Below are positions 1,139 to 17,629 of a DNA stretch of 64,000 nt, in pieces. Source of the DNA: a virus (lineage: Duplodnaviria; Caudoviricetes); the IMG/VR virus record IMGVR_UViG_3300003155_000119, positions 1-64,000 of that record. The stretch is one strand, 5' to 3'. Each line of letters starts with the position of its first letter. Within the stretch, counting starts at the first letter, position 1. Below the pieces are notes generated by a model. It was not told the DNA's origin. It searched no databases and was given only the letters and a program-made list of their open reading frames with translations. The translations under genes were made by a program, and so were the position numbers.

Positions 1139-1185
1139 TTGGACAAGTTTGATTAAGGCGGTTTGAGGAATTTTTATATATAAGT
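1139..1185 (+). promoter_or_regulatory. putative phage late-type promoter motif (TTGGNCAAA-N-YAA-N19-ATATA)
   Basis: Same spaced motif recurs about 11 times ahead of TAG-containing genes (see findings). Confidence 0.55.
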
Positions 1186-1231
1186 GAAGGATGACAAGAA
1201 TAGAAGATGTTGTTGTCCTTTAAATTAGATA

Positions 1232-1291
1232 GTTGTTACCATTTTTGCAGGGCGCTAAAAGACACTATGAGACAGCAAAAATGGTAACAAC
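1232..1291. repeat. perfect 17-bp inverted repeat (GTTGTTACCATTTTTGC / GCAAAAATGGTAACAAC), 26-nt spacer
   Basis: Read directly; AGATA abuts the left arm; degenerate copy at ~3071-3131. Confidence 0.9.
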
Positions 1292-1345
1292 CTCTTGATT
1301 TGGATATTTTATTAAATTATTAATTATAAGAAGGAGTATGAAAAT

Positions 1346-2200
1346 ATGAAAATACTAGAAGTTAACAGAGAAAGAAAAGTAAGCTCATTAGAATTAGCTG
1401 ACTGGTTTGGTATCGCTTATGGGACTTATCGTAAGTAGAAGAAAAAGAGACTAGAAGAATTAAAAGATTTCTGTGACTATGAGGAGGTATATGGTGGAGT
1501 TATTATTAAAAAGGTTTATTTTGATGAATATTATAAATATCAAGATGACGAGAACAGAGTATTAAAAGTAATAAATGATAAGTATTTCAATATGGATGGT
1601 CAAGGGAAAACTGCTTATGATGAATTGAATAGTATTTCAGGAATTGCAAAAGTGTTACAAAAGCAATACTCAAAAGATTATGGCAATAAAACATTTAGCA
1701 CAATAGAAAGAAGAGTTAGTAGAGTTATGAAGAAATGTTTTGGAGTTATAACAAAAGAGAATCCCTTGGCGCAAAGCGGCATAGGGGTAAGAGAATATGT
1801 TTGGGCTGTTAAGCTGGAAGGAGATAATAATTACCGCTATAAAACAAGAGAAGAAGATGAATTATTTAAAGAGATAATTAAAGTGGCTTATGCGGAAAAT
1901 GCCAAAGAGCGCATTGAGGAAGAAGAGTTATTGAAAGATGCAATGCGGGAGCGCATTTCTTTAGGTGAAGAAGTTAGTTTCGCCGATTATGAAAACGCCA
2001 GACGGCGCGGTAAATATTATGTTGACTTTAAGAGTGAGGTGTTAGATGTATTTAGAGAAAAGACTTCTTGTCTATTGGTAAGAGCTACTAGATACGAGGT
2101 TGAAAGAAGCATTAGGCGCAGATAGATGGAAATGCTATATGGAGATAATTGGAACAAGGGAATGATAGAAAGTGCTTGGCAAGAGGAAGATGATGAATGA
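1346..2200 (+). CDS. paralog 1 of uncharacterised HTH-domain family (284 aa, TAG=Gln)
   Basis: AGGAG SD; ATG 1346 in frame with ORF 1592 through one TAG; N-terminal LELADWFGIAYGTYRK HTH-like motif; ends at TGA 2198-2200 after a second TAG. Confidence 0.8.
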
Positions 2201-2258
2201 TACTTTTCTATATATAGATGAAAAAAATAAAAAAGGTGGAAAAAAGTTCTGTAAGGAG

Positions 2259-2326
2259 AGTTGTTCTGATTTTTTTACTTATATATAACTCTATAAATAG
2301 ATTAAAAAAACGGAACAACTTTATCT
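2259..2326. repeat. imperfect inverted repeat followed by TTATCT, upstream of paralog 2
   Basis: AGTTGTTCTG...T7 / A7-CGGAACAACT around an AT-rich spacer. Confidence 0.65.
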
Positions 2327-2364
2327 ATAGCAAAAATTATTAAAAAGGAGATTAGAGAAATAAT

Positions 2365-3069
2365 ATGGGTGTGTTAAAAAAAGGTAAAATGGTAAGTAAA
2401 GATCTAGCCGCATGGTTTAGTATTTTTTATAGTACTTATAGAAAGCATAAAAAAGAAAAATTAGAAGAGCTAAAGTCTTTCGTTAAAGAAATGGATAAAA
2501 TAGATGATGAAATCTTTTTGCGCGAGGTGAGAAGGACTGGGAATATGCTATCATCTGTGACGGGTATAGCTAATAAACTAATTCAAGAAGGAGATAAGAA
2601 TTATATGGGTCTTGATTTTAATCAAGTCCGCTATAGGATGAACAAAGCTGGGAATAGGTGCTTTGGCTGCTTCGGCGATGAGAATGTTTTATTTGATGGC
2701 CTTAAGTCAGCAAATCCCTCTGTCGGCGAGCGAGAAAAAGTGTGGGCTATAAAGGTATATGGTGGTAATCCCAATAGGTATAGGTATCTAACTTATGACG
2801 AGATGAAATTATTTGATACTTTAATTACTGATTTCTATGAGGGAATAGATGCGGATAAAATAAAAAGAATTGCGCTACTGGAAGATGATTTGAAAAATGA
2901 GGAAATTAGTATAGATGAATATTTTACTAGATTGAAAGTTATTAGAGGATTTGATTTTTTTGATATAATTGCCGCGTTTAAAAGTTAGACGGGTGAGCAG
3001 TTGGTAAAAGTGGCGCAACATGAGATATATGGGGATGTAGATTCTATTGATTGGGGAGACGAGGACTAA
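2365..3069 (+). CDS. paralog 2 of uncharacterised HTH-domain family (234 aa)
   Basis: DLAAWFSIFYSTYRK N-terminus; VWAIK...NRYRYLT motif shared with paralogs 1 and 6; reads through TAG 2986-2988 to TAA 3069. Confidence 0.8.
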
Positions 3070-3238
3070 AATTAGATAGTTGTTATGTTTTTTGCAGGGC
3101 GCTAAAAGATAGCAATTTTTTGATTTGGATACTTTATTATTTAAGCAGCTTTTGCTGCCCTTGGCGCGCGTTGTGACTAGAGGTGAGGACGCCCTCCTCT
3201 AAGGTAAAAATCTGATTTTTTTAAGGAGATTGATATAT

Positions 3239-3496
3239 ATGAATGAATTAATTAAAGAAAATAAGGAAAAAGAATTAAAAGAATTAAAGGAGGGAAAAAT
3301 TAGTTTAAAAGAATTAGCAGAATTCTTTGGAATTGCTTATGGAACAATAAGAAGAGAAATTTCTAAAAGAAGAAAATTAAAATTATTAAAAGAAAAATAT
3401 GCAGATTTTCATATTATTTATAGGAAAAATGGAAGTATTGATTATATTGTTATTGATAAAGTAAAAAAACCTTTTTATGAAGAAGAAATGAAATGA
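3239..3496 (+). CDS. paralog 3, N-terminal HTH domain only (~85 aa)
   Basis: ISLKELAEFFGIAYGTIRR...YADFHI...IVIDKV matches the family N-terminus; terminator hairpins at ~3518-3549 and ~3571-3606. Confidence 0.7.
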   Translation: MNELIKENKEKELKELKEGKISLKELAEFFGIAYGTIRREISKRRKLKLLKEKYADFHIIYRKNGSIDYIVIDKVKKPFYEEEMK

Positions 3497-3737
3497 ATGA
3501 TTGATTTTATAATATGAAAGATAAGATTATATACATCTTATCTTTTTTATTTAAGGAAAATATTTAAGTTAAGAGATAAGAAATGTGCAATCTTATCTCT
3601 TTTTTATTTATTTTTTTTAGATAAAATTTGAATTTAGCAATATTATATAAAAATTTTGGGCGACATTGGTTAATTGATTTTTTATAAAATTTAAAATATA
3701 ATGAGAGGTTTTAAAATAAAAACTTTCAAATTAAGGA

Positions 3738-3801
3738 AAAACCTCACTAAAAATCTAACTCTATATATATATAGGGTTGTAAAAGTTGAGAGGTTTTATC
3801 T
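3738..3801. repeat. imperfect inverted repeat around (TA)n followed by TTATCT, upstream of paralog 4
   Basis: AAAACCTC...TATATATATATA...GAGGTTTT-ATCT. Confidence 0.6.
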
Positions 3802-3841
3802 ATCCAAGAAAAATATATGATTAAGAAAAGGAGAATAAGAT

Positions 3842-4627
3842 ATGGAATTATATGAAGGGCAAGAATTAACATTAAAGGATTTAGCTGATTGGTTTGGAAT
3901 AAAAGTTAATTCTCTATGGGATAAAGAAAGACGCGCTAAAAAATTAGATGTTTTGAATCGTTATGCAGAATATCATATTGTTTATACTGGTAAAGATAAT
4001 AAAAAGATAAAAAAGATAGTTATTGATAAAGTATATGTACCTATTTATACAAAGAATCTTGAACGCGCTAACAAGAAGTTCGAAGAGTTTCTGTTAAGTA
4101 AAGATTATTTAGTTACCGGAACGCAAATGGGAAGAGCAGTGTATTGGTCTGATGAAATTTTATAGCATAGTATTAAAGAATCTACTTCTACTGATTATGC
4201 AAGAAGAGCTATTACTTTATGGTATGGACGACTATACTAGAAAGATGATACCGGGACAAAAGGTTACAGATATCCAGTTTGGTGTAGATATGATGCGCAA
4301 TTAGATAGTTATTTTATATTAGATGATGCGGAATGGGAAAAAATAAATAAGATATGTAATGAGGAAGGGTTAAGCGCAAATAAAAGTTTATTAATGCTAT
4401 GTCATGCAGAATTTGAAGATAAGAAAGAATTTAAAGCTAGTAAAGCAGAAGATATTTTAGCGGGAATTTGCAAGAATATAGGACGCAATAAATATTTTAA
4501 AATATTAGACCGTGCTTAGCAAGAGTTGGGCTTTAGACCTGTAATGGCTTCAAGATGTATTAATACAATATGGAGACCCTTAAAGCAGGAAGAAATAGAA
4601 GAAATGGGATTATCAATTAATGATTAA
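3842..4627 (+). CDS. paralog 4 of uncharacterised HTH-domain family (261 aa)
   Basis: Reads through 3 TAG; its YGRLY(TAG)KDDTGTKGYRYPVW aligns with YGKLYQKDTGTKGYRYPVW of paralog 5. Confidence 0.85.
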
Positions 4628-4850
4628 TGAATAATATTATTATAAGAGATAGGAAATGCGCAATCTTATCTCTTTTTTTAATGCGGAAATGGGGCAAATA
4701 TTTCATTTCAAAATTTTCATTTTAAAAAATTATAAGGAACTTTTAGATTTTTGATTTGAAAATTTTTGGTCAAAAAAATTCAAGTACTATGCTATAATAT
4801 TGATATAATGGTGAGAGACAAAATTTAGAAAAAATACGTCAAAAAATTTT

Positions 4851-4920
4851 AGATAAAACACGTCAAAAAATTAGGGTGTATATAAATATATAGGGTCTAA
4901 AAATTTGACGTGTTTTATCT
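4851..4920. repeat. perfect 17-bp inverted repeat (AGATAAAACACGTCAAA / TTTGACGTGTTTTATCT) with a third arm copy at ~4831-4848
   Basis: Read directly. Confidence 0.9.
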
Positions 4921-4960
4921 GATCAGATAAAAATCTAAAATAAAAAGGAGAAATGGAAAT

Positions 4961-5710
4961 ATGGAACTATACGATGGGCAAGAATTAACATTAAAAGATT
5001 TAGCTGATTGGTTCGGAATAAAAATAGTGTCTCTCCAAAGAAAAGATAGGAGAGAAAAGAAATTAGATATTCTATGGAGATATGCGGATTATCATATTGA
5101 ATATTCTGGAGCCAAGAAACAAAAGATAAAGAAAATAATAATTGATAAAGTATATGTTAGTGTTTATTAGAAGAATTTAGAGAGAGTTGAAACGAGGTTG
5201 ACAGAGTTTCTGTCAAGTAAAGATAATCTTGTTACAGGAGCGCAAATCGGTAAGGCTTTAAAGAAGAATGATAATATTTTAGGCGCGCTAAAAGAAAATA
5301 CTTTAATTAATTATTCAACAAGAACTCTTTGCTCTTTTTATGGTAAACTGTATCAGAAAGATACTGGTACAAAAGGCTATAGATACCCAGTATGGTGTAG
5401 ATACGAAGCTAGTTTAGATAGTTATTTCATGTTAGATGATAATGAGTGGGCTATTATTGATAAGATATGCAATGAGGAAGGATTGTTAGCGAATCAAAAG
5501 TTGCTAACTATGTGTCATGCGGAATTTGAAGATAAAGAGGAATTTAAGGCAAGTCGAGCTGAGGATATATTCCATGGGATGAGTCAATCTGTAGGTAAGG
5601 ATAAGTATTTTAGAATACTATCTCGGGCGGCCGAGGTACTTGGATTCCGTCCAGTTCTGGCCTCTAAGTGCGTTGATACAATATGGATACCCGTTAAGGA
5701 GGTAAATTAA
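4961..5710 (+). CDS. paralog 5 of uncharacterised HTH-domain family (249 aa)
   Basis: ORFs 4961 and 5198 are in one frame separated by a single TAG; close paralog of 3842-4627. Confidence 0.85.
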
Positions 5711-5712
5711 TT

Positions 5713-5976
5713 ATGTAGAGCAAAGAATTTGAAGAAAAGTATAGAGAAATAATTCTATCAAATGCGGAATTGAAATCTTTGGCATATGATTTTAATAAAA
5801 GATTCAATAAATATTCAAAATTTACTAGAAGCAAAGTGTTTAAAGAACTTCTTACTGAGGAGGAGTAGAAAAATGCTAAAGCTAGAGCATATAATCTTCT
5901 CTTTGAGAATGAAAAATATGAGAAGTTGTGGTCTGCAATTCACCAAGTGAAAGAAGAATCCGAACAATAGAATTAA
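5713..5976 (+). CDS. hypothetical protein (87 aa) beginning ATG-TAG
   Basis: AAGGAGGT SD; frame open to TAA 5976 if TAG=Gln; terminator at ~5985-6018. Confidence 0.6.
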
Positions 5977-6618
5977 CTAACACAAGAGATGAAAGATAGC
6001 TAGTTTCATCTCTTTTTTATGCGCAATTCACAAAAAAGTTACTATTTGTTCATAAATTTTTAATATTTTGGCCGCTTTTAATTATTTTTTACCTTTTTTA
6101 CTTGACTTTTAATGAAAAATATGCCCTGGGTCGCACTTTTCTTTGCTTTTTGCTATTGTCTCTGGTCAAAATCAGTTAAAATTCATAAAAAGTTCATAAT
6201 TTTGTGGCAAAATTCTAAGAAAGTGCGCCATATGATGCGGTTTTAGTCAAAAATTCTAGGGATTGAGGCTATATAGGGGAGGTTTTCAGTTCAAGAGCAC
6301 AAAGTAATGCGGTCGTGGAGTTAGTTAGCGTAAACTAACTTTTGGGAAAAAGTACGAGGGTACGTAATTGTGAAAATTCTGTGAAAATTTGGTGAAAGAT
6401 ATTGACTTTTGGGAAAATCGGGCTTATTCAATCAATTTTTGCCCGTTGACACTCAACCTTCTATTATACCATACTTTAGAGATAATGTCAAGACTTTTTT
6501 GGATGAAATATTATCATTCCTTGCATGAAAGAAATTCACCTTTGCTGCATAGAAAAGAGAGCTTTTCAGCTCTCCAAAAAAGCCCAAAACAGATAAAACA
6601 TCTGCTTGGGCCGCGTCC

Positions 6619-6873
6619 TTAATCTACCGTAATTTCAACATCACAAGGAGTTGCGGGGGTATCAACATGAATGTATTCGAGATTGGTTTCTCCGCCATCG
6701 TTGACAGTGAAGCAAAGGATAGAGTCCTCCTCGTTCAGTTTATTAAAAAGACTTGCGTCCATCCATGCGCAAAAGGCAATCCTCCCATCCTCCAAAATGC
6801 AAGCGCTATTGTAATCAAAAATCTCTGCGATAGTGGGCTTCTTTTCTGCATGATTATTAGTAACTTTAACCAC
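6619..6873 (-). CDS. hypothetical early protein
   Basis: AAAGGA SD, GTG start, intact ORF. Confidence 0.6.
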   Translation of the reverse strand: MVKVTNNHAEKKPTIAEIFDYNSACILEDGRIAFCAWMDASLFNKLNEEDSILCFTVNDGGETNLEYIHVDTPATPCDVEITVD

Positions 6874-6947
6874 GATTATTATCCTTTCCTATTGTCTTTA
6901 TAAACAGGGGAGACTATTGCCTCCCCTAATTCCTGTTTGCTATTGGC

Positions 6948-7376
6948 TCACTCCTCTACTTTCGGAGTCCCGTCCTCATTATAATACTTCTCGTCATAAC
7001 CGCGGCCAAAGTAAGCCACGTTCTTCTCATGGGTGCATTTCACCAGACCGCCCTTGCGCGCCTTAATCAGGAGGCTATTCATGTGCTGATTGCTCTTGAT
7101 GCCCTTTGCGGCCAAGTCACCAGCCTCCATCAGCTCCTTAATGGTTGCGGGCTGGCCAATCACGTCCATGGCTTCCAGGATCGCCTGAATCAGCTTTTCA
7201 TTCTCTTCCTGCTTTGCAGTAGTCTTGCGGAGGCTGTTCTTCTTCGCGTCCAGAAGCTCCACCTCGTGGACCATAACTGCTTTCAGTTCCATCTCGTCCT
7301 TCTCGTCCAGAATATCAATAATCATGTTGAAGGCTTCGCGCTTAGTGAGCTTCTTTTCGTTAGTCATGTTAGCCAT
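6948..7376 (-). CDS. small winged-helix-like DNA-binding protein (paralog of 7802-8179)
   Basis: TKRE...T.KQ.EN...SNQ..NSLL...GLVK pattern shared with the neighbour; own promoter and SD. Confidence 0.7.
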   Translation of the reverse strand: MANMTNEKKLTKREAFNMIIDILDEKDEMELKAVMVHEVELLDAKKNSLRKTTAKQEENEKLIQAILEAMDVIGQPATIKELMEAGDLAAKGIKSNQHMNSLLIKARKGGLVKCTHEKNVAYFGRGYDEKYYNEDGTPKVEE

Positions 7377-7801
7377 AGTAGTTACTCCTTTTCATTATTA
7401 CCTTTGTCTATTGTTAAGAGGATTTCCTCTTGACGCTTTTATTATACCACGTTTTGCTTCGCTTGTCAAGTGCTTTTTTTAATTTTCTTATTTATTACCT
7501 CTTTCTCTTATCCCCCTTGGAACATCTATATTATAGCAAATTTTCTGCTTTGCCGCAATAGGTAAAGTACATAAAGAAGTAATAATTTTAGGATTTTTAT
7601 TTGTCTATTTTGCCTCTTGACTTTCGTGCAAAAATATGGTATAATAGAAGGTTATAATAAAAGTCGCCGGCGCACAAATGAAAGCCGGCCGCCCATTATA
7701 CCACATTTCTTTCCTCTTGTCAAGTGAAACTTCTTCATCTGTAGTATGAAATTTTTTCACCTTTGCCGCATAAAAAAAGGAGGGGCGAGCCCCTCCTTGA
7801 A

Positions 7802-8179
7802 TCACTCGTTAACTTCTTCGTTTTCGTTCTCATTGCCAATAGTGAAGAAAGAATCCTTCTTAATCTTAACCCTCTTCACCAGACCCTCCTTGCGAAGCTG
7901 AATCAGCAGACTGTTCAGCTTCTGATTGCTGGCGTCACTCAGGCCTTCCACGTTTGCGGCGATGTCGTTAATGCGTTTAGGCTCACCCTCTGCGGTCAGG
8001 TACGCAACAATACCCTCCTTTAGTGCCGCATTAGCTTCCTGATTTGCGGTAGGCTTACTCTTAGAGTGAGAAGTCTTGCTCAGGCGCTCGACCTCCTTAT
8101 TCACAACCTCCGCCCACTCGGTCTTGCCGCTCTCGGTCAGGAAATTTGCAATCTCAACGAAATATTCACGCTTAGTCAT
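7802..8179 (-). CDS. small winged-helix-like DNA-binding protein (paralog of 6948-7376)
   Basis: MTKREYF...KPTANQEAN...SNQKLNSLLIQLRKEGLVKR; own promoter, SD and terminator. Confidence 0.7.
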   Translation of the reverse strand: MTKREYFVEIANFLTESGKTEWAEVVNKEVERLSKTSHSKSKPTANQEANAALKEGIVAYLTAEGEPKRINDIAANVEGLSDASNQKLNSLLIQLRKEGLVKRVKIKKDSFFTIGNENENEEVNE

Positions 8180-8279
8180 AATTATTTTCTCCTTTTATCT
8201 CTTGTTAGTTTTATTAGTAGGGGATTTTCCCCTTTCGTGCTTCTATTATATCATTTTCTTTTTTGTTTGTCAAGCCCTT

Positions 8280-9275
8280 TTAGAGAAGTGCTTCAAGAAT
8301 TTTTGCTTGTCTCTCGATGTTGGTTCTAAAGGTGCTAGGCTTTGCGGTTTGCAGATACTGCAACATGGCGTTGTAGATATTAGATACTCCTTCTTTTGAA
8401 ATTCGATTCTTGAAACGCGGATTGGTGGCAAAGTCAACAGTTGTACCAAGTGCGCGGAAGGGGAAAGCTTCAATCCCTTTTTCAATCTTTTTCTTTCTCT
8501 TGAAATACATCAAAAGAATTTGCGTTTCAATCTCTGCATCCTCTAGCGCCGTGTGCGCTTCCTCGAAATCATAGTTATTATCAACGTAGCGGAAAACCTG
8601 TTCCGCACTCGTCTTAAAGTATGCGCCACTGTTAGAGATTGCAGGATATGCGGCACAGTCGTTCTTGTAGTTGAATACATTCACCATTTCAGACGCAAGC
8701 CGCCAGATGTCGACCAAATCAAATTTTTCGCCGCGCAAAATAAAATGGTCATTATCTGGATTGATATACTTGCTGTTTTTGCTCTTGCCAGTCTTTGCGC
8801 CTTCTTTATTAGTCAAATACCACTTTTGACCGCGAAGGAATTTATCAAAAGAATCAGAGTAAAGCGCCTTGATATATTTTTCAGTAAACGGAATTGCTTT
8901 CTTAAAATCAAAAGCCGCGTTGTAGGCAGAAACAAAATTGCACTTTCTGCAATCTTCTAAGAGTTCGTCCATGATGTCGTTCCAGAGCGCCGTCTTGATT
9001 TTGCCGCAGTTAAGTTTCTCAATATACTTAGGTCTTTTGCTCTTGTAATAAGCAGTTTCAAAGACTTGTGGAACAAAGAAAGTTTCCTGCACAAGATAAC
9101 TAGCTTTCTTTAAGATAGTACCGTCCTTTTGAGTGACCACCCAACCAATATCGTAGATAATGGGTCTTGCGATGGCAATTTTCTTGCGTTCCTCCTCCGT
9201 CACAGCCAACTCCTTGATAAAGGGAAGTGTTGCAGTCTCACAATCCAAAACCAGATAACTTGCTTTCTTACTCAT
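8280..9275 (-). CDS. DEDDh 3'-5' exonuclease (DnaQ-like superfamily)
   Basis: ExoI YLVLDCETA, ExoII AYNAAFD, ExoIII HTALEDAEIE; start at ATG 9275 downstream of the promoter. Confidence 0.85.
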   Translation of the reverse strand: MSKKASYLVLDCETATLPFIKELAVTEEERKKIAIARPIIYDIGWVVTQKDGTILKKASYLVQETFFVPQVFETAYYKSKRPKYIEKLNCGKIKTALWNDIMDELLEDCRKCNFVSAYNAAFDFKKAIPFTEKYIKALYSDSFDKFLRGQKWYLTNKEGAKTGKSKNSKYINPDNDHFILRGEKFDLVDIWRLASEMVNVFNYKNDCAAYPAISNSGAYFKTSAEQVFRYVDNNYDFEEAHTALEDAEIETQILLMYFKRKKKIEKGIEAFPFRALGTTVDFATNPRFKNRISKEGVSNIYNAMLQYLQTAKPSTFRTNIERQAKILEALL

Positions 9276-9617
9276 TTTTTCACCTTTCTGCAATTCGAGC
9301 TTAACATCTTTTCTCGACTGCACTTATTATACCATAGATTTTGGCTTTTGTCAAGCGTTTTGGAACATATCAAATAGAGATTTTCATTGTATTATTTCCT
9401 TTCTTTCTTCCTTTGTTGTTCCCCTTAGAACGATTATATTATATCATATAATAAGCTACTTGACAATAGACAAAGTATACAAACATACGGCTCTTTCAGG
9501 ATTTTTATTTGTACAAAATTACTACTTGACAAGGAATCAAAAATGTGGTATAATAGAGAGTTATGTAAAAAGATGCGGCCAAAGTAGATTTTTTTCTACT
9601 CCAGCCGCATTCCCTTT

Positions 9618-10028
9618 TTATTTTCCTTTTCTATGACAAGTGAGCGTCAAACTATACGAATTTTCCTTAATTTGGAAACTAATTTCCCTCTCTGGCTTTA
9701 CGATTTTGATATTTTCGATGACCAAGCCGTTTGGAGAATTATCATCTGCGAGAATAGAAGCCAAGGCCGCAATAATATTTTGCTTTTCAAGATTAGGTTT
9801 TCTTTCTTTTGCTGCGCCCGTGCGCTTTTTATCTCCGGCCCCATGCTGAATCTTTGTCTTTTTAGCCTCCTGGTCAAGAGTTTCCAGTTCTTCGTTTTTC
9901 TCCACCCCGTTATCTTCGAGCCAAAGCTGAACCGCCTCCATTTTAGACACACCAAGATTCTGCATCTGTTTACTGAGGTAATCATCGGGAATATTGAATT
10001 TCTTCCCTTGTGGATTAGTGTAAAGCAT
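9618..10028 (-). CDS. hypothetical early protein
   Basis: AGGAGG SD, own sigma-A promoter, intact ORF. Confidence 0.7.
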   Translation of the reverse strand: MLYTNPQGKKFNIPDDYLSKQMQNLGVSKMEAVQLWLEDNGVEKNEELETLDQEAKKTKIQHGAGDKKRTGAAKERKPNLEKQNIIAALASILADDNSPNGLVIENIKIVKPEREISFQIKENSYSLTLTCHRKGK

Positions 10029-10094
10029 TTAATCGCCTCCTATGCTCTTATTATACCAGATTCTTTTCCTCTTGTCAAGCGTTTAATGGAAAAT

Positions 10095-10565
10095 TTATGC
10101 GGCCTCCTTTAGAATGGCTTTCAACATAGGAATAATGTTTTCGTTTGCGTCAATCGTTGCGCCAAGCGTCCATTTACTACGAACTTCCGCATTGTCATCT
10201 ACCAGAATCTGGTACTTTGCTTTGCCGCGCGAGCATTTCGTTTTAGGCGTTCCATACTTTACAAGATGAATTTCATCATAAGGGAAGCCGTATTTCGCCA
10301 GCCATTCTTTTTTAGCTTCGCGTACTGCTGAATCGTACTCCTTCGTAGACCCCTTCGAGAGCCAAGAGGTAACAATAATGCGAAAACCGCGGTCTTTCAA
10401 TTCAGCAATCAGCGGAACTAACTCCTCTGCATCATAAATGGGCTTTGCCGCACTATAAGGAGTAGCATCATAGGAGCGCAACTTTTCAAGCCATTCGGGA
10501 ACGGAATATAAGTCCGCCAAAGTTCCATCTAAATCGAACACGATTGCCTTTCCCGCACACATCAT
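10095..10565 (-). CDS. HAD-superfamily phosphatase (nucleotidase-like)
   Basis: Motif I FDLDGTLAD, motif II IVTS, motif IV LVDDN. Confidence 0.85.
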   Translation of the reverse strand: MMCAGKAIVFDLDGTLADLYSVPEWLEKLRSYDATPYSAAKPIYDAEELVPLIAELKDRGFRIIVTSWLSKGSTKEYDSAVREAKKEWLAKYGFPYDEIHLVKYGTPKTKCSRGKAKYQILVDDNAEVRSKWTLGATIDANENIIPMLKAILKEAA

Positions 10566-10613
10566 ACTAATTACCTCTTTCTATTGTTTAGTTATCCTCG
10601 TGATTGTATTATA

Positions 10614-11108
10614 TCACACTTTGTCGCTCTTGTCAACCATTCTTTTTGCTTTTTCTGCAAGTTTCATATCTTCACGGAAGCTGTGAATAATCAGTTTTGC
10701 TTCTGCCATACAGATAAAGGAGGGATAGTTTTCGTCATTTGCGTTAACAGACGGAATAAAAATGAGAGTATCGGGCTTATTGTCATCGCAAACATTAGAA
10801 TCAAAAGGCTCAGGGTTAGTCCCATCTACTTCATACCAATAAGATTTGAAGTTGTCAATGAAGGCATGGGCCGTCTTCGCGGAGGGGAAGATAATAGCAT
10901 TAACTCTATCAGTGTTTAAGCCACTAACATAGCGGCTATCAAAGGCTTCAATAATATCTCCGATCCTACCATCGTCAAGAACAGTAATAATACCAGTATT
11001 ATCTTGGCTAAACAGGAATTTAGCTTCAGAATTGAAGCACTCCTCATAATCATCGAACATTTCACCAGTATAGTCGTTCTGGTATTTAACAGTTTTAATA
11101 GTAGTCAT
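10614..11108 (-). CDS. hypothetical acidic early protein
   Basis: SD, promoter, intact ORF. Confidence 0.7.
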   Translation of the reverse strand: MTTIKTVKYQNDYTGEMFDDYEECFNSEAKFLFSQDNTGIITVLDDGRIGDIIEAFDSRYVSGLNTDRVNAIIFPSAKTAHAFIDNFKSYWYEVDGTNPEPFDSNVCDDNKPDTLIFIPSVNANDENYPSFICMAEAKLIIHSFREDMKLAEKAKRMVDKSDKV

Positions 11109-11295
11109 ATTTAGTCCCTTTCTTTGTTGATGTTTCGTCCTTCAGTGTCTTTATTATATCACGTTAGGCGGCATTTGTCAATAGCAAAATCAAGAAATTT
11201 TAGAAAAATAAGCTATATATGCGGTAAAAATAGATTTTTTTCTACTTTGGGCGCACTTATTGATTTGCTATTGTTTTATACCTCCTTAGTCATTA

Positions 11296-11577
11296 TCAAA
11301 AAATATTCCAACCAAAAGGCCAATAGTCTGCTTTCGTTTTGAGGCAATTATTTTTATCAAAGTAATACTTCCCGGGCTTATTAAAATTACCTTCTGCAAT
11401 AGTAGTAGAATAATAATCTTGGTCAATGTGCTTAAGCATCCAATTCAGAATATTTGCGTCAAAGGAATTTTCAATAGTGAAGTACCCACTCTCCTGATGG
11501 AGCATCAAATACTTTTCAATGTCATTCAAATCATTGCAAGGAAGCTCTTCATCCATCCAAGTGTAAAATTTAATCAT
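11296..11577 (-). CDS. hypothetical protein
   Basis: AGGAG SD; ATG overlaps the upstream TAA (TAATG coupling). Confidence 0.65.
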   Translation of the reverse strand: MIKFYTWMDEELPCNDLNDIEKYLMLHQESGYFTIENSFDANILNWMLKHIDQDYYSTTIAEGNFNKPGKYYFDKNNCLKTKADYWPFGWNIF

Positions 11578-11705
11578 TAGTCCCACTCCTTTTTATTCTT
11601 GAATTTCTGTCTGTTATATGCGGTTTTAGGTGTGAAACGTACGGGACGCAATACAGGCAACCTTACATGAGCTTTGCCGCATTTCTTTTTGCTATTATTC
11701 TTCAT
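11577..11705 (-). CDS. 42-aa very basic peptide, loosely ArfA-like (...RPVRFTPKTAYNRQKFK...)
   Basis: AAGGAGG SD, ATG 11705, TAA coupled to the next gene; below the ORF-track size cutoff. Confidence 0.6.
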   Translation of the reverse strand: MKNNSKKKCGKAHVRLPVLRPVRFTPKTAYNRQKFKNKKEWD

Positions 11706-11730
11706 CCCGGTTTCCTCCTTACATTCAATA

Positions 11731-12177
11731 TTATATCACACAAGGTTCAAATTTGTCAATGCCTTTTATTTCTTTTTTCTCAATAATATTAGCTCTAAGA
11801 GTCTCTTTCCATGGAGTTGTTTCTTTTACTAAATCAGCCAGCTCCCAAGCAGAATATTTGAAACTTTTTTCAACAATAGTCTTAATACATTCAAACAAAT
11901 CATTATTGATATGAATATAATTTTTAGCTACTACGGGGTCATCAATATTAATAGGGGAGCCAATATAGCAACAAAAATCATTATACAAATCGCGGACAGA
12001 TGCGCCAAAACGCCATGCTTCTATATCGTCTTCAAAAGCTGGTTTGTCAAATTTTTTAAGACTTGCCGCTTGAATATAATACAGGACTTGCTGCAATTTT
12101 AAGTTGGTAATTCCTTTGCCTTTTGCTTCATATAAACGAATTACAACCGAGGCAATTTGATGCGCTGTATAAGTCAT
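11731..12177 (-). CDS. Panacea (DUF4065/SocA/GepA-like) antitoxin-domain protein
   Basis: ITNLKLQQVLYYIQA...FEDDIEAWRFG...SAWELADL...PW resembles the family signature. Confidence 0.8.
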   Translation of the reverse strand: MTYTAHQIASVVIRLYEAKGKGITNLKLQQVLYYIQAASLKKFDKPAFEDDIEAWRFGASVRDLYNDFCCYIGSPINIDDPVVAKNYIHINNDLFECIKTIVEKSFKYSAWELADLVKETTPWKETLRANIIEKKEIKGIDKFEPCVI

Positions 12178-12246
12178 TTTATTTCCTCCTTACGCATTCA
12201 TTATACCACCACAAAGGAACTTTGTCAATACCTGTTTGAAAATTTT

Positions 12247-12441
12247 TTATGCAAGCGGATAAGCAAATGCTCCTATGCCATGCAGAACGACGAATCCCAA
12301 CGCAACAAAAGCAAAAACCATAACAAAATTGCGCTTGGTCCCGTCCATGCTAAAAAGGGACGCAATACAAATGAGCGTTAAGACGGCGGCTGCCACACAA
12401 ACAATCAAAAAGCCAATAGAAGAAAGAATAGTGAGGAACAT
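12247..12441 (-). CDS. small two-TM membrane protein
   Basis: Two hydrophobic segments, SD, own promoter. Confidence 0.6.
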   Translation of the reverse strand: MFLTILSSIGFLIVCVAAAVLTLICIASLFSMDGTKRNFVMVFAFVALGFVVLHGIGAFAYPLA

Positions 12442-12753
12442 AGTAGAAACTCCTTTCAAATTGCGGTCTAGTGGTTTTTGGCCGCCTTCAGTATCTATAT
12501 TATATCACAGTCTAGTATCTTTGTCTATTGTCAGGGCGCACAAACATTTGTTTGTTTCAAGATTTTATTTTGGCGATTTGACTATTGATTTTCGTTTCAA
12601 AATGTGGTATAATAGACTGGGGTGCGCCTAAAACGGGAGTTAGTGGGCGCTAACAATAGCAACTCACTACAATACATCTAAACGCGGTTCATGAAATACT
12701 CGGAACTAAATCCTTTTTTTACATGCCGCTTTTTTATTTATTTATTTATTTGT

Positions 12754-12927
12754 TTACTTTTCTTTAGGAATGTAAAGAGTAACAACAATATTTGCGGCGG
12801 TGGCATTTCGGCGTTTGGCGGCTTTAATTGCTTCGATGGGAGACTCGTACCAACCGCGCATAACGACGGGCCGCGCAATTCCTTTTTCGTTTTTAATAGT
12901 GAAATAAATGTTGTATTTCTTTTCCAT
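12754..12927 (-). CDS. hypothetical small protein
   Basis: MEKKYNIYF... start within the longer ORF-track frame. Confidence 0.5.
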   Translation of the reverse strand: MEKKYNIYFTIKNEKGIARPVVMRGWYESPIEAIKAAKRRNATAANIVVTLYIPKEK

Positions 12928-12928
12928 G

Positions 12929-13084
12929 CTAGAACCCCCAAACATTATTGATGATTGCATCCTTCTTGTTGTTGACGAAAATAATAAAAGCAGAAAGCTC
13001 GTCTTTATTGCCGAAGAGTTGCACATTTTTGCGAATCTGATTCGCGTTATAATCTTTGTACGAATATTCAACATGATAAACCAT
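12929..13084 (-). CDS. hypothetical small protein (ends at TAG, or about 12 codons later if read through)
   Basis: MVYHVEYSYKD... ORF in the early cluster. Confidence 0.45.
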   Translation of the reverse strand: MVYHVEYSYKDYNANQIRKNVQLFGNKDELSAFIIFVNNKKDAIINNVWGF

Positions 13085-13142
13085 AATTAAAAATCGCGTG
13101 ATAAAGTATGCGCGCCCCACTCTATATAGAAAGAGGTATTTG

Positions 13143-13442
13143 TTAATGTCCAATAGAAAGAAGATAATAGCTTCCACTATCAGTGTTTATACAAACCAGC
13201 TCAACAACGAAGTTCTCAGAGTTAAGATACCCCAAAATCACTTGCGGAATAGCCTCAGCTTCAATCTCAGCAAACCCCCATTCAACGTAATCAAGAGTGC
13301 CCTCCTCAATGATATCAGGAGCGACAGGAGACCAAACGAAACGTTTCCCACTCTTACTCCCTGCCTTCTGAATCAGACGGTCAAGGCCGCTCATAATAGA
13401 GGACAAATTCTCCAGAAAAGTTTCATATGCTTCAAAAGCCAT
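13143..13442 (-). CDS. hypothetical protein
   Basis: GGGAGG SD before MAFEAY. Confidence 0.6.
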   Translation of the reverse strand: MAFEAYETFLENLSSIMSGLDRLIQKAGSKSGKRFVWSPVAPDIIEEGTLDYVEWGFAEIEAEAIPQVILGYLNSENFVVELVCINTDSGSYYLLSIGH

Positions 13443-13830
13443 AATTAATCCTCCCCTCTTTATCATTAAACCAAGACTTTTCTTCGATAATATCGTGAAT
13501 CACCGAAGGAAGAATATAACAGCGAATAGTTACATCAGCAGAGCGAATGTTTGACATAAGAGTGACTGCATCTACGTCTATTTCGAGCTCCTGAAATGCC
13601 TCTCTGCACAGGTCAAGATTCGTCATGACTGCGGTAATGGCGTCTTCCTCGTCGCTGTAGTAGTATGCGTAAGACCCGTTACCAGTCACTCCCGATGCCC
13701 AAAACGCATCAGTAAGCCGCCACTCATAATCAGTCGCATCTTCGTCCTTGCGCGGCAAAAGTTTGTCATCCTCCTCGATTGCCTTCAGAACATCTTCTTT
13801 GACCGCATCATAATAATCATATTTTTCCAT
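13432..13830 (-). CDS. acidic early protein (VTGNxS / DVTIRCY motifs), possible DNA mimic
   Basis: Strongly D/E-rich 132 aa; own promoter and SD. Confidence 0.7.
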   Translation of the reverse strand: MEKYDYYDAVKEDVLKAIEEDDKLLPRKDEDATDYEWRLTDAFWASGVTGNGSYAYYYSDEEDAITAVMTNLDLCREAFQELEIDVDAVTLMSNIRSADVTIRCYILPSVIHDIIEEKSWFNDKEGRINYGF

Positions 13831-13960
13831 GCTATGTTACCTCTTTCCTATTGTTTCTCTCTGTTTCTATATATATTATATCATAAAATAGATTTTTTGT
13901 CAATAAGGAATTTTTTGCTTTGTCAAATGGCGTGATATGGTATGCGCCCCCACCTTCTCC

Positions 13961-14221
13961 TTAAAGGCAATCAGAATCGTTATAGAGCTCAGGGTCGCCA
14001 TTAGCGCGGGCTTCCTCCTCTGCCGTCATGGCTTCCTCTGCGTCCAGATAATCAATCTGCGCGTCGATGCGGTCAAGCAGATTTTCGCACATATTGAAGG
14101 CTTCCTCATCGTCCATGGTATCGAAAGCGCAGGCCAGACGATCGACCACACTCTTCATTGCGTACAGCTCCTCCATGGTCAGAGTATTCAGTTCTTCAAC
14201 GAAAGTCTTGTAGTTCATCAT
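13961..14221 (-). CDS. very acidic small helical protein
   Basis: D/E-rich 86 aa; GAGG SD; stacked promoters upstream. Confidence 0.7.
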   Translation of the reverse strand: MMNYKTFVEELNTLTMEELYAMKSVVDRLACAFDTMDDEEAFNMCENLLDRIDAQIDYLDAEEAMTAEEEARANGDPELYNDSDCL

Positions 14222-14566
14222 AGTTAGTACCTCTTTTTCTTGTCTTGGTGGATTTCCTATCCACGCTCTTATTATAACTCCAAGTGGTTATTCTGTCAAG
14301 CACTTTTTTATCTTTTTGTTTTTTATCTTTTGCTTGACCTCTTGTTGTTCCCTCCTTGCATTATCATTATACCACCACGCGGCAATTCTGTCAAGTCAAA
14401 TATTTTTCCTCTTTTGCCGCGCCTTTTGTACAATGCGCCAAGAGTTAGTGTAGACTAATTTAATGGGTTCTCTCCCTCCTGCGCCCTCTCCTTGCCGCCC
14501 TTCTGATATTAGTATAGCACAAAATGGAGCGAATGTCAATAGCAAAATGCAAAAAGAAAAGGGGCT

Positions 14567-14737
14567 TTACAGCCCCATCATATAATCTTCATAGGCTTCA
14601 GCTTCCGCCTGCGCCTCCTCAAACATTGCATCCTCCTTAGCCGCTTCCCAATATGCGGCCTTTGCGAAACGCCGACCAAAAGGATAAGTAATATCGAGCG
14701 CCATTACTTTCTGATTTGCCATGCTGAAGTGTTTCAT
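14567..14737 (-). CDS. hypothetical small protein (56 aa)
   Basis: AAAGGAG SD before MKHFSM; promoter ~14787-14815. Confidence 0.6.
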   Translation of the reverse strand: MKHFSMANQKVMALDITYPFGRRFAKAAYWEAAKEDAMFEEAQAEAEAYEDYMMGL

Positions 14738-14908
14738 AATATTATCTCCTTTGCTCTTGTGTGTGTTTTTCTTGTCTCTGTATACATTATAACTCCGCGG
14801 CAAGTATTTGTCAATAGGAAAAAAGAAAATTCTAGGGGTTGACTTTTCCCTCGCCGCATGGTATAATAAAAGCGTAGAAAGCAAACAGCCCTAAAATAAT
14901 AGGAGGAA

Positions 14909-15121
14909 ATAAAGACGAAGGCTATCGGCTATAAGAGCATCAGCAACGTGTTTGGTATTGCGGTTTATGAAGTGAATGATGAAATGGCGGTTGCGGCTTT
15001 CGTCCAGATGGATAAAGCAGACGCGCCCCGGCGGCACAAAATCTATTATAATAAGGATGGGAACGCCTACTTTAATCTCCATGGTTGCCGTCACTATCTG
15101 AAAGACTTCATGCGCATTTAA
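14909..15121 (+). CDS. hypothetical protein with ATA (non-ATG) start
   Basis: Plus-strand promoter and AGGAGG SD; open frame KTKAIGYK...GNAYFNLHGCRHYLKDFMRI; terminator after it. Confidence 0.55.
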   Translation: MKTKAIGYKSISNVFGIAVYEVNDEMAVAAFVQMDKADAPRRHKIYYNKDGNAYFNLHGCRHYLKDFMRI

Positions 15122-15234
15122 GAAGGGTGAAACCCCTTCTTTTTTCATTTTACCTATTGACTTCTCTTTTGCCGTGTGGTATAATATAACCAGAAAGAGA
15201 GAAACACTTAGAAGAAAAAGGAAGAGGTAGAATT

Positions 15235-15444
15235 ATGAAAAAGCTGAAAAAACTCATTATTGTTCGGTTCTCTATTGGAAAGGAAGAAGGCTGGTACCAG
15301 GAGTGCGAAGAGAAAGAATTTAACGAAGTTTTTCATGGGAGCATGGATGAGCTTATTAAGTATCATGAAGCGGCTGGCCATGAAGTGAAAAATATCGAAA
15401 TTCAAAAATGTTATCCTTCCATCCACGAAATGAACGAGGGCTGA
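15235..15444 (+). CDS. hypothetical protein (69 aa)
   Basis: Promoter ~15157-15185, GAGG SD, terminator overlapping the stop. Confidence 0.65.
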   Translation: MKKLKKLIIVRFSIGKEEGWYQECEEKEFNEVFHGSMDELIKYHEAAGHEVKNIEIQKCYPSIHEMNEG

Positions 15445-15799
15445 AAAGCCCTTGTTTTTATATCCATTAGTTAGTTAGCTTAAACTAACCGCACCTTACA
15501 ATAGCGAAAGAATTAGTTCTTTAATTATTCATCCCGGCGGGCCAAAAAACTAGTGTTCATGCGGCTTTTCGGGATTTAGTTACTTATCTAATTTGTACGC
15601 ATTTCAAAAATAAAAGTAGTTAGTTAGTCATGACTAACCAGCGCCGGGCCGCAACTATGATTATCTAAAATATAACAAAATAAGCCGCATTTCAGGAAGC
15701 GGCTTAACTTAATTAAGAACAACTTTTTGACGCATTTTTACACCAGTTAGTACGCGCTAACTAAGGCTCGGCTAAACTCTTTCGAGTTCAGCTTTCATT

Positions 15800-15982
15800 T
15801 CAATCATCGTTTAATGACGACTGCAAGAAGGTGCATAACTAGACCAGTTCACTTGAACCGCTTGTATCATCATGCGCGGATTCAGATAAAAATCCTGCTT
15901 TGGCCGCATTGATTAGTTCGCTTAAACTAACTGATGATAACAATATATCTAATGCACCATACTCCTTGGGAGTTAAACGCAT
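15800..15982 (-). CDS. hypothetical protein (60 aa, one internal TAG)
   Basis: Promoter ~16029-16057, AAAGGA SD, hairpin at ~15770-15792. Confidence 0.5.
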
Positions 15983-16071
15983 CAAATAATCGTCCTTTCT
16001 TTATTCTTTATTCTATTGTTACATCTTTATTATAGCAAATATTTTTATAAAAAGCAAGGCGGCAAGAAGTT

Positions 16072-16189
16072 TGTGCACTTCAAGATAGATTTTTTCTTAC
16101 CCCTAAAGGGACACAAAGTGCACATTTTATCTAAACAGAAAAATGTACCAAAATCTATTCCTTAGAGGTAGAAGTCAGTACATTTTTCT
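16072..16189. repeat. two adjacent inverted repeats, each followed by TTATC
   Basis: TGTGCACTT/AAGTGCACA (16072-16124) and AGAAAAATGTAC/GTACATTTTTCT (16137-16189). Confidence 0.7.
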
Positions 16190-16192
16190 TTA

Positions 16193-17068
16193 TCATAATT
16201 CATTTATTTTTGTTAGGCCTTTCCGCAATGCTTCAATATCTTTTTTAATATCAACAAGCATGATTCCTCTTTTTAAATTATATTCTGTAGTTCTAACAAT
16301 AATATAACCAGTTTCTTTCTTAAAAATATCAATAATGTTTTTGAATTTAGATTTATACTTTTCTATTAGAGCAGAATAAACATCTGTACCATTAACTTGA
16401 TTTAAATCAACAACTTCAGGTAACCCAAATAAATCTAACAAATAATTAGAAAAATCTAACATCTATTCTTCTGATTGCGGAAAGAAGTAATTCTTTAAGC
16501 ATTTATTGAATAGCTTTATTTCATCTGCACTTAAAGCTCTATATTCATTCTTTCCCTCTAACTTAATAGCCCAAACATAATTCTTTACTCCATAGATTCC
16601 TTCTGTTATCTCTATTAGCTCCTTAAAAGTATATTCCTTTTTGGGATTAATAGTTGTACCAAAATATTTGTCTGCTATTCTCTTTACTTTTGTAATGATA
16701 GACCTATCAGACAATAGTCCATAATCTTTTGAATATATTTCTTTTAATACGGACGCCATACCAGAAAAAGAATTCATTCTATAGTTTGTTTCATCTCTTT
16801 CCTCTATATTAAGCTATTCTTGTTTCTCTGCATCTGATAATCTATCATATAAATAAGACAATATTCTATAAGCATCAATCTAATACTTTTCGTACGTTGA
16901 GAATATTACTTCATCAATTACTATTTTCTTTCCCTCTAAATGATAATCACAAAAAGAATTAAATAGCTAGAGTCTTTTTTCCTTAGTATGTTTGATTGTA
17001 CTATATGAAATATTAAAAAATACAGCTAAATCTTTTAAAGTTAATTTATCGCCTTTTCTTATTTCCAT
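16193..17068 (-). CDS. paralog 6 of uncharacterised HTH-domain family (291 aa)
   Basis: GGAGG SD, MEIRKGDKLTLKDLAVFFNISYSTIK; 4 TAG read-throughs join ORFs 16463 and 16193; NSFSGMASVLKEIYSKDYG and YVWAIKLEG match paralog 1. Confidence 0.85.
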
Positions 17069-17102
17069 TTATTTTTCCTCCATATCTTTTATCAAAGGTG
17101 CG

Positions 17103-17451
17103 TTGTCACATTTTGCTTCATCCCTTGCCCCGTCTTGTTGCTATTATTCTGAAGCAAAATGTGACAAATAAGAACTTTGTTAGGTTTATTAAAGTTATAA
17201 AGAACTATAAGAGTTAGCAAGTCTAACAAAGTTCTTTGTCTATAGTTTTTTGTTGAGTCAGAAAAAGGTGCTGTTTTACTTCATCTCTTATAGTGTCATT
17301 TCTCTTCTAATGAAGTAAAACAGCACCTTTTTCTGCTCTATCATTTTAGAATATTGTCACATTTTGCTTCGTTATTTTTTCTGGTTAGATTTGGGTATTG
17401 ATTGTTAATCCTTTTATACTATGATAAACCTAGCAAACAATACCCAAATCT
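17103..17451. repeat. array of four different inverted repeats (14-26 bp arms, 25-39 nt spacers)
   Basis: 17103-17167, 17170-17236, 17259-17335, 17387-17451; extra copy of the first arm at 17354-17370. Confidence 0.9.
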
Positions 17452-17629
17452 GATTCATTACATTTTACTAAAATTGTACTTTTTTGCTTTTTAGTTCTCT
17501 TTCACTTATATATAAAAACACCATAAATCCTCTTAAATAAAAGCGCCCAAAGTCATCTAAGGAATCTTTGGATTGCGTCTAAATTGCAGAATAGGCTAAG
17601 GCCGCACATCCTTTAACATTACGTACTCT

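Follow-up and report, generated by a model that had tools for sequence, protein, structure and literature searches.

Six paralogous winged-helix genes with matched inverted repeats in a TAG-recoded gut phage: candidate cognate protein/operator pairs

The first 64 kb (the window) of a 113,778-bp virus contig (IMG/VR record IMGVR_UViG_3300003155_000119; counts given for the genome span the whole contig) carry six paralogous genes, P1 to P6, for predicted tandem winged-helix DNA-binding proteins, and the leaders of these genes hold every strong inverted repeat (IR) of the genome. Among close relatives, the predicted recognition helix of each protein and the arms of the repeat ahead of its gene are either both conserved or both replaced, and four of the genes lie behind a late-type promoter. 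On this basis we propose, giving the proposal about an even chance, that the paralogs and their repeats are cognate protein/operator pairs that would autoregulate insulated, late-transcribed single-gene cassettes.

The source gut phage has reassigned TAG to an amino acid. With the standard code the region falls into short frames only, its longest open frame being 353 aa; with TAG as a sense codon, the longest exceeds 2,900 aa. Window genes were translated with TAG as glutamine (TAG=Q), and the six genes, which an earlier note made from the DNA letters alone (the sequence-only reading) had grouped as one helix-turn-helix (HTH) family, are true paralogs under this code. P1, P2 and P6 (A group) were joined by BLASTP at 1e-31 to 1e-4 (P1-P6, 1e-31; P1-P2, 6e-20), and P4 and P5 (B group), which are 65% identical, at 1e-108. 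Pairwise BLASTP matches between the A and B groups were confined to the N-terminal ~70 aa, whereas their profiles were homologous over the full length (hhalign 99.9%, E 1.7e-33, 227 columns). P3, which consists of the winged HTH (wHTH) only and which the sequence-only reading had suggested as a possible dominant negative, is kept in three strains (the window, L014 and L023). No seventh copy was found in the contig.

AlphaFold (AF2) models of two paralogs, P1 and P5, had a mean predicted local distance difference test (pLDDT) value of 73-74, and that of the B-group protein (P5) exceeded 90 over its N-terminal domain. The modelled N terminus forms a strand-helix-helix-helix-hairpin winged HTH (residues ~10-65), followed by further helix-helix-helix-hairpin units; as modelled, the paralogs are tandem winged-helix DNA binders. 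Structure searches matched winged-helix DNA binders alone (VIA Z up to 7.0), including PadR, Fur, CodY, the Orc/Cdc6 winged helix and RepE WH2, of which none stood out, and no catalytic, HUH, nuclease or recombinase fold was among the matches. Foldseek returned nothing below E 0.1 against PDB, and uncharacterised gut siphovirus proteins alone, at low TM, against BFVD; hmmsearch of the family profile against PDB sequences gave one chance match only. Where the sequence-only reading had considered a Rep, recombinase or nuclease fold, the models and structure searches pointed to winged-helix binders only. Pfam, PHROG, NCBIfam and PADLOC held no fitting family, only weak N-terminal HTH similarities.

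The inverted repeats are tied to these genes. Strong IRs (arm score >=14, spacer 8-45 nt) numbered six in the 113.8-kb genome, all of them inside paralog leaders (1.5% of the genome), where the sequence-only reading had put them, and 20 composition-preserving shuffles of the genome contained none. The association was also observed in other phages (15 non-redundant loci with 24 family genes and 35 strong repeats): 17 of the 35 strong IRs lay within 400 nt upstream of family genes, a space corresponding to 7.2% of the DNA (p=5e-11). Homologues elsewhere do not, as a rule, lack upstream repeats, since 14 of the 24 family genes have a strong one; the proximal IR ends 27-54 nt before the start codon.

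In the 113.8 kb, an arm is present as a single inverted pair, supplemented at P5 and P6 by at most one further direct copy, and at no other place. These third copies, and the degenerate P1-type repeat before P3, had been described from the letters alone and were found again (Table 1). The further statement that the arms differ between paralogs holds for their variable part and not for all of it: the A group shares an inner ATTTTTG beside the spacer, and the B group an outer (G)ATAAAAC. The presence of such a submotif in each arm group suggests that a half-site has a constant part and a variable one, which would be expected if a multi-domain protomer covered the whole arm. TTATCT/AGATAA, noted earlier as TTATCT/AGATA beside the arms, is ~3-fold enriched in the leaders (11 versus 3.1 expected, P=4e-4); in P2, P4 and P5 it lies directly beside the right arm. 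The spacers of most family repeats hold TATATA followed by (T)AGG, similar to the downstream half of the phage promoter described below. A perfect 20-bp palindrome, TTTTATCTGATCAGATAAAA (4913-4932), overlaps the right arm of the P5 repeat.

The proteins and the repeat arms vary in a matched manner. Between homologues 86-95% identical, variation is concentrated in the N-terminal domain, mostly in the predicted recognition helix; in the P5 set, residues 21-40 vary at 12 of 20 positions, compared with 0-3 per 20 over most of the remainder. The window and L025 pair the helix ..SLQRKDRR.. (QRKD) with the arm ..AAAACACGTCAAA (CACGTC), L024 pairs ..SLWVKERR.. (WVKE) with ..AAAAACCTTACTGA (CCTTACTGA), and L023 pairs ..TMWDKDRR.. 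(WDKD) with ..AAAACCTCTCC (CCTCTCC). This P5-like pair of L023 resembles that of P4 in the window, in which ..SLWDKERR.. (WDKE) goes with AAAACCTC[A/T]C (CCTC[A/T]C). The 30-nt spacer core of the P5 set is the same in the window, L023 (flipped), L024 and L025, and the arms have been replaced in L023 and L024. Similarly, helix and arms of P2 are the same in the window and L023 and both changed in L014, where the helix and arms of P1 are also both changed and the spacer core GGGCGCTAAAAGA is retained. Helix and arms were concordant (same-same or changed-changed) in 10/10 ortholog pairs. Nonsynonymous divergence (dN) in codons 1-40 was 2.5-8x that of the rest when helices differed and was not raised in same-helix controls; for P2 (window-L014), omega, the ratio of dN to synonymous divergence (dS), was 0.69 versus 0.12 at similar dS. 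The variable helix, the concordant pairs and the link between repeat and gene together support, at the level of sequence, the diversifying lock-and-key family of proteins and sites that the sequence-only reading had proposed. Diversification of specificity probably avoids cross-talk with paralogs and rival phages.

A whole-genome motif scan revealed a bipartite motif, TTTGG[T/G/A]C[A/G]-N28-T(T)ATATA(A/T)(A/G)TG, with eight good sites (window 1138, 3655, 4765, 17551 on the minus strand, 22168, 24866 and 48294; genome 66432). Four precede P1, P4, P5 and P6, the paralogs to which a late-type promoter had been assigned earlier, and four lie in the structural region, one ahead of a GIY-YIG gene. 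The upstream box is set ~14 nt farther off the -10-like element than the -35 of a sigma70 promoter, pointing to an activator or a sigma-like factor of the phage; a 366-aa gene at 18916-20016 matches a PHROG 'sigma factor' family at 5e-39. Sigma70-type promoters in the cassette regions were not above shuffled expectation. TTTTTATATATAAGTGAA was rejected as a general genome-wide promoter, since its exact form occurs only before P1 and P6 and the general element is the bipartite motif. The near-identical terminators reported at ~3571 and ~4644 are present, together with a third like them (Table 1); GATAA/TTATC motifs make up the stems of all three. Because they share the structural-gene promoter and carry 1-4 in-frame TAG codons, compared with 0-1 in the nearly TAG-free replication genes at ~72-101 kb, the paralogs look late-expressed, the timing being read from promoter and TAG codons.

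Table 1 Features of the paralog cassettes (window coordinates).
Feature	Position	Strand	Description
Bipartite promoter of P1	1138-1192	+	TTTGGACA-N28-TTATATATAAGTG; motif scan
P1 inverted repeat	1232-1291		Perfect 17-nt arms, 26-nt spacer (GGGCGCTAAAAGA...), end 54 nt before ATG
Paralog 1 (P1)	1346-2200	+	284 aa, 2 in-frame TAG; A group; tandem winged-helix; AF2 model
P2 inverted repeat	2259-2320		17-nt core arms (29 nt at 79%), spacer contains TTATATATA
Paralog 2 (P2)	2365-3069	+	234 aa; A group; wing hairpin absent, present in L023 ortholog
Degenerate P1 left arm and start of P1 spacer, upstream of P3	3079-3115		Also in L023
Paralog 3 (P3)	3239-3496	+	wHTH (HTH + wing) only, 85-88 aa (85 from ATG); no TAG; HTH_DeoR 2.4e-5
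Terminator-like hairpin after P3	3571-3601	+	AAGAGATAAGA...TCTTATCTCTT plus T run
Bipartite promoter of P4	3655-3709	+	Motif scan
P4 palindrome	3738-3797		33-nt arms, 73%; centre TATATATATATA; outer arms AAAACCTC[A/T]C
Paralog 4 (P4)	3842-4627	+	261 aa, 3 TAG; B group
Terminator-like hairpin after P4	4643-4673	+	Near-identical to 3571-3601
Bipartite promoter of P5	4765-4819	+	Motif scan
Third direct copy of P5 arm	4827-4843	+	2 mismatches
P5 inverted repeat	4851-4920		Perfect 17-nt arms, 36-nt conserved spacer (TTAGGGTGTATATAAATATATAGGGTCTAA), end 40 nt before ATG
Paralog 5 (P5)	4961-5710	+	249 aa, 1 TAG; B group; AF2 model
Small open reading frame directly after P5	5713-5976	+	87 aa, 3 TAG; kept in L024 and L025; no family match
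Third similar terminator, after the 87-aa frame behind P5	5984-6014	+	
Terminator-like inverted repeat of P6	16137-16189	-	
Paralog 6 (P6)	16193-17068	-	291 aa, 4 TAG; A group
P6-proximal inverted repeat	17103-17167		Perfect 18-nt arms, 29-nt spacer, 34 nt before ATG
Three more P6-leader inverted repeats	17170-17236, 17259-17335, 17387-17451		Unrelated arms, no assigned protein partner
Third copy of P6 arm	17354-17371		Genome-wide arm search
Bipartite promoter of P6	17497-17551	-	TTTGGGCG-N28-TTATATATAAGTG; motif scan

Read as operators, the long palindromes in the gene leaders would each be the cognate site of the paralog encoded downstream. Two protomers would occupy the two arms, the hypervariable N-terminal recognition helix reading the variable part of the arm, and the conserved spacer, mostly TATATA...AGG and similar to the -10/start region of the phage promoter, would lie between them. 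Binding at the palindrome may set the transcription level of the paralog's own gene, with the site located 27-54 nt before the start codon and either downstream of the late-type promoter or surrounding a second one within the spacer. Promoter, operator, gene and terminator would thus form a cassette that may be duplicated, lost or degraded between strains, and the diverging specificity of protein and site would keep paralogs, and the homologues of co-infecting relatives, from cross-reacting.

Several observations weigh against this operator reading. The binding of each paralog to its own repeat is itself deduced from sequence; arms of 17-26 nt placed 20-40 nt apart are atypical for a simple HTH operator; and three of the repeats ahead of P6 are without a matching protein in the source genome. 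The arms occur nowhere else in the genome, so a purely self-referential loop would not be the whole story; either the site itself is functional, or targets lie outside the source genome, for example in related co-infecting phages. The P1 and P6 spacers have no TATATA box, and their CTC(T)TATAGTG / CTCATAGTG motif is directed away from the gene. The P5-type spacer (window 4868-4903) is reverse-complemented in L023 (5909-5948), by either an inversion or template switching at the palindrome, so the orientation of the spacer is not fixed. Helix and arms lie within ~250 bp of each other, so linkage in old haplotype blocks could yield concordance without contact, and the P1 and P5 sets have an elevated dS, too, over codons 1-40, which indicates that old allelic blocks and exchange contribute.

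The most distal P6 repeat (17387-17451) has the arm core GGTATTGTTT in common with a repeat in L001 (9704-9746), ~260 nt upstream of a distant homologue there; with a core common to both, this class of repeat may bind a conserved, not a variable, factor.

Among the functions suggested earlier, the operator-type ones (incompatibility, superinfection control) are still candidates. A broader role, which we regard as unlikely, is a widespread specificity system of large gut phages in which the pairs act as self/non-self tags on phage DNA (in packaging choice, exclusion of related co-infecting phages or incompatibility), with several cassettes and orphan sites collected as weapons or decoys in the competition between phages.

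The repeats might instead function as nucleic-acid hairpins independent of the proteins, that is, as 17-26-bp mRNA stems (an RNase III substrate or stabiliser), DNA cruciforms or stop signals; the arms would then vary freely as long as they remained complementary, and the helix variation would be unrelated but linked. Transcription of the P1, P4, P5 and P6 repeats is probable, since the bipartite promoter precedes them; perfect arms were found in 12 of 27 repeats with the arm sequence unconstrained between alleles, and the single gene P6 has four leader repeats, in an array near the edge of the putative early block (see below); linkage could account for the concordance of helix and arms. Phage T5 provides a precedent, having a repeat-rich injection-stop region for which stop signals or cruciforms have been proposed. 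However, the sense strand revealed no wobble bias among arm mismatches (7 G.U-type, 7 A.C-type and 25 other), most of which are non-wobble, and the spacer (loop) is better conserved than the arms (stem) among close strains, the opposite of most structural RNAs; both observations favour a double-stranded DNA site over an RNA hairpin. Hairpins would also leave unexplained why protein variation focuses on the recognition helix and why the repeats are tied to one gene family across phages with three genetic codes, and the A- and B-group arms each retain a family-specific constant submotif. Overall, we judge hairpins of this type to be quite unlikely.

The genomic setting bears on a further alternative. 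The phage portal is 36% identical to that of Phass-1, a TAG-recoded gut phage (PMC10607447), and ~34% identical to portals of large Enterococcus siphoviruses; a crAss-like identity was rejected, the nearest portals being those of Phass-1 and large Firmicutes siphoviruses. The block at 6000-16000 has a GC content of 0.40 (~0.30 elsewhere), minus-strand genes, zero in-frame TAG codons and a reversed GC skew, and looks like an early region. P1-P5 stand at one side of this block and P6 with its repeat array at the other, and the TGA-recoded relative L002 keeps an order of family gene, minus-strand block, and 363-aa and YonG_N-like genes. No terminal repeat was found in the contig and no tRNA gene in the window. 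The TerL region begins at ~21.25 kb, with P6 ~4 kb off on the opposite strand and P1-P5 15-20 kb off, and no recognisable TerS adjoins TerL in the source phage. Within the terminase region, a GIY-YIG endonuclease gene (22251-23039; Pfam 3e-11) has its own bipartite promoter, in agreement with the introns that the sequence-only reading mentioned there.

The palindrome could be a cis-acting genome element and the paralog its specificity factor, as in packaging of the lambda cosB/TerS type or at an origin or partition site, with specificity diverging so that a phage acts on its own DNA alone during co-infection. Lambda gpNu1 (TerS) is a late wHTH dimer that binds the inverted R3/R2 sites flanking a bend site by its own gene and marks DNA for packaging, and recognition-helix/site pairs differ among lambda-like phages, giving self-specificity (PMC4669245). 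The cassettes have the same layout (N-terminal wHTH, inverted sites, conserved middle, own-gene position, late expression and differing helix/site pairs), their arms are confined to paralog-leader sites, TerL lacks a recognisable TerS neighbour, and the paralog clusters flank the early block, which the sequence-only reading suspected of being a terminal repeat. Weak HTH-level matches to TerS PHROGs (P3 to phrog_509, E 0.006; P6 to phrog_309, E 0.075) and weak fold matches that include the winged helices of Orc1/Cdc6 and RepE point the same way. Six pairs per genome with a strain-variable copy number are, however, hard to fit to a single pac/cos site or origin, the paralogs lie 4-20 kb away from TerL, and the constant 27-54 nt to the ATG suggests coupling with gene expression. 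Profile searches gave no Pfam terminase match, and no significant match of the paralogs to TerS, Rep_3 or replisome-organiser profiles. RepE (2z9o) aligned with the N-terminal wHTH only (Z 5.2, root-mean-square deviation 2.5, 61 residues), within the generic winged-helix range, and no Rep_3 or other Rep family in Pfam matched at E<=1. Against an origin in particular, the P1-type spacer is not AT-rich, and late promoters and TAG codons contrast with the near TAG-free replication genes; the Rep-iteron origin suggested by the sequence-only reading loses ground, because there are no iteron arrays, no Rep match and late expression signals. We judge a cis-acting element of this kind, the main rival to the operator reading, to be unlikely, although less so than free-standing hairpins.

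A family profile search of metagenomes recovered 801 clusters at 50% identity (573 at E<=1e-10), mostly viral. Isolated phages and other collections gave negative results: tblastn with P0001, P0005, P0040 and P0068 against 50,697 GenBank phages found no family member, blastn of the region against GenBank phages found nothing, the family profile found no member in Phass-1, an IMG/VR scan with P0034 gave nothing, and a scan of genome contigs with P0065 gave no relative. When metagenomes were scanned for the conserved P1 spacer pattern, the only matches were chance ones in unrelated DNA. Homologues stand on contigs of phages using TAG=Q, TGA=W (tryptophan) or the standard code, mostly as single genes or tandems of 2-4, often amid opposite-strand small genes and with long non-coding DNA on both sides. 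Members in TGA=W and standard-code phages (L002, L012, L013 and L007) indicate that the family predates or crosses recoding.

Cassette content varies even among close strains: the window has P1-P5, L014 has P1-P3 and others, and L023 has P2, P3, a P5-like copy and a new type. Some copies are degraded, such as the truncated P3 and the P2 of the window, whose missing wing is kept in L023. This variability and degradation suit a fast-evolving accessory role better than a core role. They are also what would be expected of selfish or competitive cassettes, in which a breakage-prone palindrome and a protein for its own site spread by gene conversion among co-infecting phages or exclude rivals with the same site, and orphan repeats and mosaic alleles with raised dS are consistent with such spread. 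The 19.7-kb metagenome contig L025 starts exactly inside the P5 repeat (L025:1-54 comprises the spacer end and right arm), probably as an assembler break at the palindrome, with a physical DNA end as the alternative; assembly breaks at palindromes are, however, expected artefacts. Moreover, no nuclease, recombinase, transposase or integrase domain was found in the paralogs or adjoining cassettes, no target-site duplications flank the repeats, and the cluster keeps its synteny beside the early block in the TGA-recoded relative. The selfish, self-recognising cassette considered by the sequence-only reading is less well supported for want of a mobility enzyme, and we regard it as very unlikely. 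An integron- or miniature inverted-repeat transposable element-like origin (attC, IS200/IS605) was rejected, given that there is neither an integrase/transposase domain nor a flanking duplication.

The family, with ~800 clusters at 50% identity across three genetic codes, is absent from Pfam, PHROG, NCBIfam and PADLOC, and none of its members was detected in an isolated phage. If the proposed pairing is correct, the cassettes would be a small natural collection in which DNA-binding proteins match ~60-75-bp sites and specificity changes fast, of use for studying the evolution of recognition codes and as a source of orthogonal regulatory parts. Should the pairs serve self-recognition between phages in competition, phage-phage conflict in the gut would acquire a new layer. 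With the bipartite motif, a promoter specific to a recoded phage lineage has been defined, a result relevant to the proposal that recoding of stop codons gates the expression of late genes.

Comparison with known systems places the cassettes near several of them. Immunity repressors, restriction-modification controller C proteins and Aca proteins are HTH regulators encoded just downstream of a palindrome at their own promoter, and the specificity classes of such autoregulated regulators differ between related elements, limiting cross-talk. The paralogs likewise have an HTH gene directly after a palindrome at or next to a promoter, and varying specificity classes. They differ in having no sequence relation to these regulators, far longer arms, a conserved 20-40 nt spacer and tandem winged helices, and in their setting: a large phage, recoded and apparently virulent, in which up to six insulated paralogs use a late-type promoter and no cargo gene is regulated besides the regulator's own.

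The Rep_3 initiators of iteron plasmids (RepE, pi, RepA) repress their own promoter as dimers bound to an inverted repeat there, and they are similar to the paralogs as ~250-aa winged-helix proteins with ~20-bp sites and such a repeat; the paralogs have no Rep_3 profile match, no direct-iteron array, late signals and a fold match no better than generic. For archaeal Orc1/Cdc6, inverted origin recognition box (ORB) elements of ~20-30 bp flank a central region immediately upstream of the initiator gene. Long inverted elements upstream of a winged-helix gene, with each site pairing with the linked protein, are common to both systems, whereas the paralogs have no AAA+ domain, much shorter spacers that are not always AT-rich, and a phage location.

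Lambda TerS/cosB (R3-I1-R2) is alike in its late-type N-terminal winged HTH protein and in inverted sites around a conserved middle by the protein's own gene. The cassettes differ in being present in six copies instead of one, in not adjoining TerL, in having no significant TerS profile match, in proteins of 230-290 aa with extra winged-helix units in place of the TerS oligomerisation ring, and in arms of 17-26 nt. Systems in which an HTH protein has a palindromic site next to the gene that encodes it are already known; the new features are the tandem winged-helix build, long arms around a spacer that is conserved, matched specificity that is hypervariable, and arrays of several cassettes in gut phages with a recoded stop codon.

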